From positions 1,240,001-1,304,000 of the forward strand of contig NZ_JAINWA010000001.1 of the NCBI RefSeq assembly GCF_021021555.1: a stretch of 64,000 nt of DNA, in the 5' to 3' direction. The DNA is from Teretinema zuelzerae (GTDB taxonomy: Bacteria > Spirochaetota > Spirochaetia > Treponematales > Treponemataceae). This document shows positions 12,001 through 15,000 of this stretch, in pieces; positions within the stretch are counted from its first letter, which is position 1; the number at the start of each line of letters is the position of its first letter. Position numbers: made by a program.

Positions 12001-15000
12001 CAGATTGCATCCCCGCGGCAGAACCACTCTGCCGAACCTGTCGCGGATATATAAGCCGTCCACGGTGAACAGTGCTTCTGCCTTCATATTTCTCTCCTAT
12101 CCATGAATATTGAACATTCTCTCCGTCGGGAACGGACGTTGTATTCCAGCACCCGAGTTTAAAAAAAAAGGACCCTGACGGGTCCTCCAGAGCCGGACTA
12201 TTCGCCGGCATAACGCGTCCCTTTCGGAACTATTCGGTAAGAATGCGGATTACCTCTGACTTATCGGTCGTCTTGAGGATCTCCTGCCGCTTCTCGGCGC
12301 TCTTGAACAGAAGGCTCACTTCCGCCAGGAATTGCAAATGGGGACCGGTCTTATCTACCGGAGAAAGAGTCATAATAAATATTCTGCACGGTTCCTGATC
12401 CAGCGAATCAAAATCCACGGGAGTTTCGGAGATGCCCATGCAGGCAACCAAATCGTCAACCGAGTCAGTCTTGCCATGGGGAATTGCGATACCATGCTTC
12501 ATACCGGTGGACATTTTCCGTTCACGGTCGAGTACGCATGCACGAGCGGCAGCCTTATCTTTCACTTTTCCTGCCTGGACAAGGACATCAAGCAGCTCAT
12601 CGATGATCGCCTCTTTGGAGGTTCCTTTGAGGTGCAGATTGACTGTATCAGTAGTCAACACGGTTTTCAGGTTCATAGTGCCAGTTTACGTTCGATCATA
12701 GGAAAAGTCAAGGTTTTTGTGTACAATAATCGGATGACAGACACCGACAAATTCAACTCAGACCTTGATCGCCTTCTCTCGCGCGCGGCCGCGCCCGGCG
12801 CGATGACTCCCGGAGCTCTTGCACGGGAAATGTCCCGTCTCTTTCAGATCAACGCCCGCGATTTCGGAAATCTGGGAGAGGCCCTCTCCGATTATTGGAC
12901 CGAACGCTACGGCCCTTCTCTTGCTCAGCCGGAAATGAGAAAACCCGCCGCTGACTGGCTTGTTCATGCATACTGCCTCCTTTCCGGCTGTTTCGAACCG
13001 GCCATGGACTTTCCCGACGAAGACTGGGAATCCATACGCGAAATCGTATCCGCAGAAGCAGACGATCTGGACATACAGGTCCTGACGGAAATTTTGACGG
13101 TCATCGTAGACCGCGGCAAGGCTTGATCATTTTACAATTCTTCTGTCGCGATTTTCTTGACAACCAAAGAGTCTGCTACGATATTTGGGGTGTAGGGAAA
13201 TGATCGACAGGAGACGATCCCCGGACAACCATAGACGGACATCGGAGAGCTTCCGGATGGGACAGCCGATGACAACAACGGGTTTTTACGCAAAAGGGGG
13301 CCATATGGATACTCCGCCTGACAGTTTTTGCCGGATTTGGTCCGGCGCACAGTGACAGATTCCCGCCTGCGCGCGACGCTTGAGCAGGAAGACATAGATT
13401 GGCCGAAGTTCAGCACGGACAGCCCCGATGGGGTAATTAAGGCCATCACAAGCCGGTGAGAGACCGGCTTTTTTATTTTAAAACCCCCTGCTATACTTCC
13501 CATCCGATGGAAAAAGAATACGAGTCATGCACATTATGCCCCAGAAACTGCGGTATCGACCGAAATTCAGGAGAAACGGGATTTTGCGGCGAAACAGCCG
13601 ATATTAGGGTCGCCTGGGCAGGATTTCACTTCGGCGAAGAGCCTCCGATAACCGGCAAAAACGGTTCCGGAACGATATTCATCACCGGATGCAATCTGCG
13701 TTGCGCTTTTTGCCAAAACTACCAGATTTCCCAGGAAGGCATGGGGAGGGTCGTAACGCGGGACGAATTCGCGGAGCTCTGCCTCCTCCTTGAACGCGAA
13801 GGAGCGGAAAACATCAATATCGTGACAGGCAGCCACGCTATTCCGGGAATAGCGACCGGCTTGCGGCTCGCGAAAAACAAAGGGCTTGCCGTTCCGGTGC
13901 TCTGGAACACATCGGCATACGAAACCGAAGAAGCGATTGAACTCTTGAAGGGGCTCGTCGACGGATGGATGCCGGATCTAAAAACACTGAACCCACTTCT
14001 TTCCGAATCGGTATTCCAAGCGGCCGATTATCCGTCTACGGCAAAAAAGGCAATCAGAAAAATGGTAGAACTCTCTCCGTTGAAGAAAACAGCTGCAGGA
14101 GAAGGCGGGTATCCCCAGGGGAAGCTGCTTTCCGGGGTCATCGTCCGCCATCTGGCGATTCCAGGAAAACTTGCAGATACGGAACTGGTGCTCAAATGGT
14201 TTGCCGAACATCTGAAAGGAAGGGCAGTGCTTTCCCTGATGACACAGTACACCCCCGTCAAGGCTAATCCGAAAAATCAAACCATAGACGCATTCCCGAA
14301 CCGGCTCATCCAACAAAACGAGTACGAACGATTAACCGAAATTCTTTCAGAGCTCGATATCGAAGACGGGTACATGCAGGAATTGGTTGAGGATACCGAG
14401 TGGCTCCCAGACTTTGCCCGCCCGCAGCCCTTTTCAAACGAGCTGGCCCGGCCGGTCTGGCATTGGAAATCCGACAGGTAAACCGGTTAAGCTTTGTTCT
14501 TTCTTTTTTAGATAAACTGATTTATACTCTTATCACGTGCGCGCCTTTCATTTTATGCACACAGCATCAATCCCGGAGGCCTCCATGCAATTCCCCTTCA
14601 TGTCTCAAGCCGTAACAGGAACCGCGATTCCGGTTGGAGCCTTACGAACCGATGAAAGCGTCGGATGCGGCGAGTTCCTTGATCTCATACCCTTTGCACA
14701 GTTTTGCAATAAAGCCGGAATGAACCTCATCCAGCTTCTCCCCGTCAACGATACAGGCACGGAAAGCTCGCCCTACAGCGCACTCTCGGCCTTCGCCCTG
14801 CACCCCCTGTACATCAGGCTGCAGGACCTTCCCGAAGCCAAATCCTTCAAGGATGACATCGCCGCTCTCCGCACCGCGCATGCCGCGGCGCCGCGGTTCG
14901 ACTACAAAACTCTTCGAAACGCGAAAATAGATCTCCTCCATCGGATCTTCGAAAAAAACGAAAAACAGATCGTCGAAAGCCGGGAATTGGCGGACTGGAT

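Follow-up and report, generated by a model that had tools for sequence, protein, structure and literature searches.

Known leader peptides and small RNAs compared with the locus

MgtP is counted among the proline-rich leader peptides. In Salmonella and E. coli, MgtL is a small ORF in which prolines come early, acidic residues are present and the ribosome pause is the signal (PMC12856214, PMC5021804). Such leaders precede a fixed Mg2+-transporter gene and act via Rho or via access to the ribosome-binding site. The trp, his and ilv attenuators combine a leader ORF and regulatory codons with cross-complementary hairpin arms and an intrinsic terminator. Dual-function sRNAs (Spot 42/SpfP, AzuCR, SR1, SgrS) are independent small transcripts with an internal Shine-Dalgarno sequence (SD) and a micro-ORF, according to parts of PMC12612679. 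The peptides they encode are conserved in sequence and act on protein targets. 6S and Ms1 are abundant single-copy RNAs of 180-300 nt with lineage-specific synteny, and the stem-loops of the dnaX and HIV frameshift sites are spaced a constant distance away from the decoding site (PMC7282821).

We analyzed a window of 64,000 nt from the spirochaete Teretinema zuelzerae (source genome, G000) and found an RNA that resembles each of these systems in some respect. All positions count along the window and all features described lie on its + strand. With MgtL/MgtP the RNA shares the small ORF, its early prolines and its acidic residues; however, it has no fixed downstream gene and carries its own terminator, and no Mg2+-transporter Pfam match was present among the 47 + 43 neighbour ORFs scanned. 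Like dual-function sRNAs it is an independent transcript with an internal, probably translated small ORF, yet it keeps just a Pro-Pro pair and the distance from that pair to a hairpin. As in attenuators, comparative evidence points to a translated ORF with regulatory codons, and the hairpin arms are cross-complementary. Attenuation is nonetheless very unlikely: no consistent co-oriented downstream gene is present, no antiterminator is kept or covaries with the terminator, and the neighbouring gene has its own promoter. Unlike 6S, the RNA has neither a predicted rod-and-bubble fold nor an RF00013 match, and it appears to carry a selected translation start. In contrast to dnaX and HIV, no slippery heptamer or second-frame product was seen in it, and its putative pause site is Pro-Pro, 2-4 codons past the start. 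By the definitions given in part of PMC11109978 it is an sORF/sRNA rather than a uORF. Identity with tmRNA, RNase P RNA or SRP RNA was rejected, each being found elsewhere in the source genome, as was a type I toxin mRNA, the peptides being polar and variable rather than hydrophobic membrane peptides, with the search for an antisense partner confined to a promoter scan.

An independent RNA conserved across the class

The RNA is an independent unit with its own promoter and terminator, conserved across the spirochaete class and not tied to any downstream gene. A sigma-70-type promoter (13157..13185) consists of TTGACA, a 17-nt spacer and GATATT, with 10/12 matches; TTGAC is unchanged in 24/24 aligned genus loci, and 87/106 copies have a promoter-like pair upstream. 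The transcript is put at ~285 nt (13192..13478), with the 5' end placed from the -10 box and the 3' end from the U tract, and the smallest copies are ~180 nt. It closes with an intrinsic terminator, AAGCCGG...CCGGCTT and a U tract (13450..13480, stem 13450-13470), in which seven of eight pairs are invariant over 25 genus copies; most class-level copies have the same stem. Between these limits lie the micro-ORF, hairpin H1 (GCCGG/CCGGC, 13330..13346), which covaries across genera, hairpin H2 (13366..13388), with compensatory change in 4/6 pairs within the genus, and a three-way junction (13400..13444) seen at genus level only, its place being taken by other stems in other families. In the genus alignment 12/33 stem pairs have changed on both sides, which 0/500 shuffles reach; the full-length fold is no better than that of shuffled sequences (z -0.81). 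The promoter, terminator and conserved stems proposed in the first-pass annotation are thus all borne out. Upstream, outside the unit, a 130-aa gene (12734..13126) is syntenic in the genus and belongs to no known family, with no match in Pfam or NCBIfam.

Contigs covered the RNA in three of four metatranscriptome runs, at depths of 28 to ~10,000 versus 0-15 for the flanks, these being contig depths from runs chosen because they contained the stretch. The contigs extend over 13206-13404 (depth 1404), ~13251-13400 (single contigs, ~9,900) and 13153-13456 (depth 28.5). Run X6 had the neighbours at depth ~3 and no contig over the RNA. Contigs from X7 and X8 end near 13400, a position that cannot define an RNA end. 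From these depths the RNA looks to be among the most abundant in the cell.

All 27 genus genomes carry the RNA, giving 28 genus copies because G001 has two in tandem; no second copy was found in the source genome. The first-pass annotation had counted 20 of the 26 other genus genomes, too few by our searches (26/26), and had taken the RNA to be absent from most of the more distant radical-SAM loci; in distant relatives it has instead moved or diverged. Across the class we accepted 106 distinct copies from 17 families. Gracilinema caldarium (record L128) and Brucepastera parasyntrophica (L107) are non-pathogenic carriers that have been cultured. The RNA is single-copy, with lineage-specific synteny. 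Kept out of the count was L227, which has a single Pro (MRSPNIT). Left out as false or doubtful were 10/30 loci of one set (L073, L079, L080, L085, L087-L090, L092, L094), 3/33 spirochaete-titled matches (L121, L145, L187) and, besides L227, 7/21 listed rows of a further set, and 6/28 new loci (matches falling within genes, with a single MENPPKKYFRL stretch accounting for three) and 11/20 regions of another set were also omitted. L089 is a syntenic locus with promoter and terminator kept and no SD-AUG-Pro-Pro, perhaps a true homologue lacking the ORF. Pattern matches in G138 and G150 proved to be 16S rRNA, and matches of model R1 in g16 were false.

Model R1 gave no true match in g24 (0/14), g19 (0/6) or g13 (0/5), which does not imply absence, and a phylum-wide pattern search, too unspecific for range mapping, had no match in f58 (0/89), f63 (0/34), f29 (0/16) or f18 (0/8). 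Several of the sampled genera and families that live with hosts gave no match to the RNA, and loss of the RNA may therefore go along with a shrinking genome. Rfam returned nothing over the RNA at E up to 10 in the window or up to 0.5 in the loci of eight relatives, and none near a gathering score, in agreement with the first-pass annotation. A TD-1 match in L068 sits 400 nt from the RNA. No description of the RNA was present in the literature searched, which covered subscription papers thinly; the supplements of motif surveys PMC8632094, PMC6429828 and PMC11109978 could include it.

The micro-ORF and its distance to the hairpin

In the window the micro-ORF MDTPPDSFCRIWSGAQ (16 aa, 13305..13355) has its start codon behind a purine run. 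The ribosome-binding site, AAGGGGG (13294..13300), has an anti-SD pairing of -10.9 kcal/mol, and scored copies range from -9.3 to -12.5 kcal/mol. Codons 4-5, CCG CCT (13314..13319), encode the Pro-Pro pair. Among the 106 accepted copies 96 have Pro-Pro and ten Pro-Thr; the first Pro is codon 3 in 18 copies, codon 4 in 84 and codon 5 in four, and is in frame in every one, including 31 class-level loci whose start codon was chosen from the SD with frame disregarded. Indels ahead of the prolines are whole codons. Stops in the three codons past the prolines number 0/318 in frame versus 18/530 triplets in the other frames, counted over relatives that are not independent. Nine different Pro-Pro codon pairs are used among 94 copies, and start codons (ATG/GTG/TTG) and stop codons (TGA/TAA/TAG) interchange among relatives.

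A scan based on the two hairpins alone, its pattern specifying neither AUG nor Pro, returned six spirochaete-titled matches. In all six an SD-AUG-Pro-Pro is present in frame and stops 10 nt short of the hairpin, compared with 6/39 other matches, all of them Ala/Pro-rich gene tails of Mesorhizobium without SD. Within the source genome Pro-Pro at codon 3-5 occurs in merely 4/945 SD-bearing ORFs. The second Pro is CCU in 75/96 Pro-Pro copies, compared with 16% of Pro codons in the source genome, and CCU and CCC are given as the slower Pro codons of E. coli in part of PMC12856214. Judged from the comparison of copies, selection has acted on the frame, on Pro-Pro and on the distance from Pro-Pro to the hairpin, and the signature supports selection for translation through Pro-Pro. 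Translation in vivo and pausing at this site are what we infer from it, with a pause at Pro-Pro as the most likely purpose of the micro-ORF.

The peptide itself drifts. Its length varies from 8 to 37 aa in the class and from 15 to 28 aa in the genus, and no residue is fixed past the prolines. An apparent R-R-E-T-G in genus peptides is the hairpin read as codons and shifts when the hairpin covaries. Many genus copies have an AUGA overlap at the stop, at which inspection of the alignment revealed no conserved second ORF. The peptide is likely a by-product. The first-pass annotation was too strict in several respects: the six residues it held to be fixed (M-D/E-N-P-P-E) are exact in 15/28 genus copies and differ in the window's own peptide, the GGAGG said to be always upstream is present in 25/28 and replaced in the window by the run given above, and for its 14-27 codons the genus copies give 15-28 aa.

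When folded independently, the GC core of the hairpin begins 9-10 nt past the second codon in 85/106 copies (10 nt in the window), despite the variable AUG-to-Pro distance. When the P site is occupied by the second Pro, the H1 core starts at +14, or, in copies where outer pairs lengthen the stem, at +11 to +13. According to PMC7282821, the mRNA channel takes 11 nt, counted downstream from +1 in the P-site codon, and a stem-loop at that place prevents binding in the A site; a 13-nt spacer relieved the block by the HIV stem-loop. On this model the H1 core would be at, or no more than 2 bases from, the mRNA entry channel.

Some observations weigh against a pause. The core spacer likewise amounts to 13 nt when the P site contains the second Pro. 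The stem of H1 is short, and the 52-nt region past the prolines has a median of -13.3 kcal/mol, reached by 30% of random windows of the source genome. Pro-Thr, found in the ten copies mentioned, is no classic EF-P motif, and the left-out L227 has a single Pro.

The stretch is also read as RNA, as its nucleotide bias shows: U precedes CC in 80/106 copies and the third base of the first Pro codon is a purine in 102/106. U at that position, which is avoided, would make the local fold ~3 kcal/mol tighter, and this may be the reason. Since CCNCC is nearly an anti-SD, pairing could account for part of the Pro-Pro conservation; self-pairing of SD with Pro-Pro was no better for cognate than for shuffled pairs (P 0.13).

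Candidate functions of the RNA

The reading that we favour, tentatively, is an RNA that acts in trans, gated by a ribosome pause, and senses translation through Pro-Pro and the hairpin. A strong SD and start followed by Pro-Pro, with a hairpin some 10 nt on, would probably leave a ribosome parked just after initiation. The slow proline step would coincide with the helicase block at H1, because the H1 core would be at or near the mRNA entry channel. Speed through the prolines, set by EF-P and prolyl-tRNA, would likely determine how long the RNA is shielded and when the C-rich single-stranded stretch is free in trans. We can only guess at the output, most likely RNA lifetime via endonuclease access, and the UCCRCCU motif or the 3' stems becoming available to a putative partner. 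The source genome encodes efp, RNase Y and rho, and for RNase J it has only a match below cut-off.

A second, rather doubtful possibility is a class-wide housekeeping ribosome trap at tmRNA-like levels, which would load a ribosome, hold it on Pro-Pro up against the hairpin, and so store ribosomes or EF-P, or else report elongation capacity to RNA polymerase in a lineage with no detected 6S. Unlikely, in our estimate, is a sponge in which the abundant RNA holds 70S (or EF-P) paused near the start and serves as a store or brake for translation, so that the pause is the output rather than a sensor. This would fit the very high library depth, the strong SD in every scored copy, and a middle region free to vary; 61/87 copies with a promoter call have a further SD-like run of purines close to the 5' end, and in some families (L245, L249, L251, L263) the RNA begins almost at the SD. 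The pause at two prolines is short when EF-P is present, however, and a structured 3' half conserved per lineage would be needless.

The nucleotide-level bias at Pro-Pro could also mark a seed, with the C-rich, anti-SD-like UCCRCCU pairing to other mRNAs and the ORF merely toggling it, in the manner of Spot 42 and AzuCR, where ORF and pairing region overlap (PMC12612679, in part). We regard such a base-pairing sRNA as improbable. No mRNA target or other partner was found, one candidate target having been followed up. This candidate, the best of 945 in the source genome, the glycogen-synthase leader (-22.6 kcal/mol), was rejected as its pairing is not conserved: AGGTGG is present in 1/23 genus and 0/28 distant leaders, and cognate pairing (-9.7) hardly differs from non-cognate (-9.3). 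The shuffled self-SD comparison above speaks against this reading as well.

That the product is the peptide, or a short peptidyl-tRNA, with fMet-x-(x)-Pro-Pro binding a protein or the ribosome, is quite unlikely. The coding signature is clear, 18/28 genus copies encode 17 aa, and the prolines often have acidic residues on one side or the other, a trait shared with MgtL (PMC12856214). Against this, the prolines alone are conserved over the length range of the class, and a peptide would not require a fixed nucleotide distance to a hairpin.

We give just as little weight to an RNA-polymerase-binding stand-in for 6S, with the pause coupling the RNA to translation. The precedent is Ms1 in Actinobacteria, an abundant RNA binding the polymerase core according to part of PMC9130861. 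The single copy, class-wide range, lineage-specific synteny, very high depth and shortest length of ~180 nt would suit this role, with tmRNA, RNase P RNA and SRP RNA all accounted for elsewhere. Rfam 6S was found in 0/101 genomes of the order by a weak search that found it in 4/14 control genomes. However, none of 20 full-length predicted folds has a 5'-3' rod with a central bubble, and a rod built from cross-paired GCCGG hairpins is less stable by a median of 4.4 kcal/mol, winning in 5/47. We know of no 6S RNA with an SD and ORF.

The neighbouring radical-SAM gene (13507..14481; Pfam Radical_SAM, E 8e-13) lies outside the unit. Its product falls in Atlas clusters auto-named 'putative pyruvate formate lyase activating enzyme', and the Pfam scan reported no SPASM or RRE domain. 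A RiPP precursor of this enzyme was rejected, as there is no conserved core peptide and no obligate enzyme linkage. The first-pass annotation had proposed a leader in which stalling at Pro-Pro controls read-through into the gene. The translated Pro-Pro, with a pause as its most likely purpose, holds from that proposal; the read-through does not. Very likely the RNA is no switch or leader for this gene, and the annotation's own caveat, an independent sRNA, is the better reading. G001 (88% complete) and G026 (95%) keep the RNA with no match to the radical-SAM protein anywhere in either assembly. By crude ORF calls, outside the genus the gene is next in 5/46 loci, whereas in 21/46 the ORF that comes next is read from the opposite strand; other neighbours are unrelated. 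The -10-like box noted past the terminator holds up as part of the gene's own, probably leaderless, promoter: TATACT (13492..13497) lies 9 nt before the ATG, and a TA-N3-T box lies no more than 24 nt from the script-chosen start in 29/31 scored loci. The gene has no ribosome site in the window, and its anti-SD pairing is weaker than -4 kcal/mol in 29/31. The depth of the flanks is also hundreds to thousands of times below that of the RNA.

In a cis attenuator, a Pro-Pro stall would free H1 arm 2 to pair with terminator arm 1. The geometry of such a stall would be suitable, and in the genus, as in most copies at class level, each of the four arms is complementary to the others. The link to the gene is also old (25 genus loci and L028, L067, L072, L086, L263, L159 and L179), and in L263 a true SD precedes the gene, which lacks a -10 box there. 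Yet this pairing, the only antiterminator candidate, is broken in three genera, where H1 becomes GCUCC/GGAGC or GCCCC/GGGGC and the terminator remains GCCGG. The cross-paired form is the less stable in 42/47. The shared arms need no switch, because GCCGG/CCGGC is the second commonest terminator-like stem in the source genome. Together with the neighbourhood evidence this makes cis attenuation very improbable. A CsrA sponge of the CsrB/RsmZ kind is scarcely credible: csrA is encoded in the source genome, AUGGA is at the start in 60/94 copies and ACAGGA is in a loop of a few genus copies, but outside the SD and start GGA motifs are not enriched (ANGGA 93 versus 100 expected, GGA 341 versus 371 expected, 94 copies).

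To our knowledge, hardly any work has addressed how these spirochaetes control expression after transcription, and proline-pause sensors are known solely as leaders wired to one downstream gene. Here an entire bacterial class retains these parts without such a gene. If the RNA were a ribosome trap, it would represent a new category, that of mRNA-like RNAs with the paused ribosome itself as their function. The two codons and the 10-nt spacer of this family provide a precise handle on how an RNA could use a paused ribosome in trans.

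The RNA unit and its expression

A promoter and a terminator delimit a roughly 285-nt RNA in the gap that separates the radical-SAM gene (ATG at 13507) from an upstream gene, at 12734-13126, for a 130-aa protein without a known family. Downstream of the sigma-70-type promoter (13157-13185; 10 of 12 matches), the SD AAGGGGG (13294-13300) lies 5' of the ATG (13305) of a 16-codon micro-ORF, MDTPPDSFCRIWSGAQ. Hairpin H1 (GCCGG/CCGGC) begins at 13330, exactly 10 nt past the second Pro codon, and is followed by a second hairpin, a three-way junction and the intrinsic terminator (13450-13470 plus a U tract). 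The genome carries a single copy. An Rfam search of the window gave no match to the RNA near the gathering score, and tmRNA, RNase P RNA and SRP RNA were ruled out because the genome has each of them elsewhere. The upstream 130-aa protein is acidic and matched no Pfam or NCBIfam family; its gene keeps its synteny throughout the order and is oriented divergently to a stand-alone PTS EIIA gene. At 6283-9258 a Rex-like regulator is followed by serC- and serA-like ORFs, identified from translations alone.

Of the words in a 1.8-kb stretch, 11-15% were present in several RNA runs among the 24 listed, approximately the share of that stretch occupied by the RNA. Four runs, each from a different study, were compared by depths of contigs, which come from runs selected for containing the stretch and carry no strand, ends or true level: run X7 gave an identical contig over 13206-13404 at depth 1404, with a neighbouring piece at 15; X8 gave contigs about 9,900 deep over 13292-13384 (17,000-31,000 when summed by bin) versus 3.5-5 for the neighbours; X13 gave a single contig (13153-13456, depth 28.5) with empty flanks; and X6 gave no contig covering the RNA. 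DNA carry-over by itself would not be expected to lift one 200-nt piece a thousand-fold above its flanks.

Conservation within Teretinema and across the class

BLAST detected the RNA in 23 of the 26 other Teretinema genomes, and pattern searching with inspection upstream of the radical-SAM gene recovered it in the remaining three, for a total of 28 copies in 27 of 27 genomes. Both sides have changed in 12 of 33 stem pairs within the genus, and 92.8% of cells in the stems are paired, against at most 50% in slid controls; H1 and the terminator alone tell little about covariation at this level because they are nearly invariant. The micro-ORF has 17 codons in 18 of the 28 copies, its stops interchange among TGA, TAG and TAA, and it starts with ATG, GTG or TTG. 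The first-pass annotation described the first six residues of the peptide as fixed, which is too strict, as only 15 of 28 copies comply and the window's own peptide does not. At one locus (L007:1400-1440) the SD-spacer-AUG block is tandemly duplicated (ATGGAGGGCCGTTA twice) 5' of the micro-ORF.

Covariance model R1 identified true homologues in four of the order's families, with 20 of 30 loci retained there, as well as further true copies within the family. Of the 80 matches listed from pattern searching of all GTDB genomes, 33 were spirochaete-titled loci and 30 of these proved true, those of Gracilinema caldarium and Brucepastera parasyntrophica among them. R2, a short model restricted to the 5' core, extended the RNA to 13 additional families; 22 of its 28 new loci were retained, as were 9 of another 20 regions. 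The scored set comprises 106 distinct copies from 17 families. Every retained copy has the SD, start, Pro pair and hairpin, and also the terminator where the locus extends far enough, while the middle region varies with lineage.

The first Pro falls at codon 3, 4 or 5 (18, 84 and 4 of the 106 copies), so that insertions and deletions ahead of it span whole codons. Pro-Pro makes up the pair in 96 copies and Pro-Thr in the other 10, and the hairpin core, folded independently of the motif, begins 9-10 nt past it in 85 of 106. Stops occupy 0 of 318 positions in the three codons after the pair, compared with 18 of 530 in other frames. A pattern scan for the two hairpins only returned six spirochaete-titled loci (among them two copies from the genus and one previously known copy from the class level), all six with an in-frame SD-AUG-Pro-Pro ending 10 nt 5' of H1. 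Covariation of H1 between genera comes from an alignment fitted to the model and thus biased toward it; an unfitted alignment has the same stems. Nucleotide bias at the C-rich motif UCCRCCU, over the Pro codons, shows a second constraint at the RNA level. Two counter-cases were found: L227 has a single Pro, and L089:1501-1733 (genome G324) is syntenic and has a promoter and the same terminator around a shorter structured RNA that lacks SD-AUG-Pro-Pro, possibly a natural ORF-less variant.

Independence from the radical-SAM gene

The RNA had been read as a leader wired to the radical-SAM gene, a reading that the comparative evidence contradicts. Genomes G001 (88% complete) and G026 (95% complete) gave no match to the radical-SAM protein, yet both retain the RNA, and their syntenic locus continues directly to malQ. 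In G001 (L022:1394-1899) two diverged tandem RNA copies, both retaining Pro-Pro, H1 and terminator, occupy the place of the gene in relatives. Two copies also occur in G027 and G078. Another terminator-like remnant, ACAAGCCG...GCCGGCTTTT, possibly a decayed second copy, follows the RNA in G026 (L055:1800-1850), just 5' of malQ.

The first-pass caveat that a -10-like box precedes the radical-SAM gene is borne out: of the 31 loci scored, 29 have one close upstream of the start (one further locus was left unscored and one start wrongly picked), and in the window it is TATACT, 9 nt 5' of the ATG. Anti-SD pairing is almost nil in the scored loci, with no SD in the window (13492-13509); the exception, L263, has a real SD and no -10-like box. 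Judged from these upstream regions, the gene looks leaderless or nearly so, both in the window and in almost every relative scored. A similar box lies near the start of the glycogen-synthase gene in L380 and in L387, and these spirochaetes may commonly have leaderless mRNAs. In the G045 assembly (L060:4055-4204) the radical-SAM gene is frameshifted around codon 45.

Outside the genus the first downstream ORF (n = 46) is on the opposite strand in 21 loci, unrelated on the same strand in 19, radical-SAM in 5 and missing in 1. Seven class-level loci from several families (L243, L246, L252, L257, L258, L259 and L268) have the RNA directly 3' of uvrC; other lineage-dependent neighbours are gyrB-like, cobW, radA-like, RRM and hydrogenase genes. 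In L071 and L093 (family f4) the RRM-domain gene is convergent, just 3' of the RNA, and its product is a candidate binding partner there. In L068 (2078-2198) a below-threshold Rfam TD-1 motif match lies on the other strand, some 400 nt 3' of the RNA.

Possible function of the core

According to PMC7282821 the bacterial mRNA channel accommodates 11 nt past +1 of the P-site codon, with A-site binding blocked by stem-loops at 11-12 nt and unblocked at 13. When the second Pro occupies the P site, the H1 core begins at +14 (in extended stems, at +11 to +13), and a slow proline step and the hairpin therefore coincide within one codon. The second Pro codon is mostly CCU, a minor Pro codon in the window's genome and one described as slow in E. 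coli in PMC12856214. From this geometry and codon choice the core can be read as a built-in pause that would act right after initiation. Since no gene lies downstream, the target of such a pause has to be either the RNA or the ribosome pool.

One alternative is that the RNA is a ribosome or EF-P sponge; another is a base-pairing sRNA, and dual-function sRNAs do share its build. A functional peptide could instead be the product, its length ranging from 8 to 37 aa. For a 6S/Ms1-like polymerase RNA, Rfam 6S RNA was found in none of 101 genomes of the order, by a search that caught just 4 of 14 controls. The attenuator first proposed, in which a Pro-Pro stall allows read-through into the radical-SAM gene, fares worse; its only antiterminator candidate (H1 arm 2 with terminator arm 1) is destroyed by H1 covariation across genera. 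A CsrA sponge is the weakest alternative.

Closest in working are the proline leaders MgtL and MgtP. Each of the known families against which the RNA was tested has a defining feature that it lacks; only the loose class 'small RNA with a small ORF' fits. A full-text literature search found no description of it; motif-survey supplements, outside its scope, could list it. The family is new to Rfam, and its mechanism may, with fairly low probability, be a new category. Our preferred reading, held tentatively, is a pause-gated RNA in which a parked ribosome would cover the spacer and the C-rich single-stranded stretch, thereby determining how long the RNA lasts and how accessible it is to a partner. 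As RNase Y and Rho are encoded in the window's genome and RNase J was not found there, an endonuclease would be a likelier reader of the pause than a 5' exonuclease roadblock.
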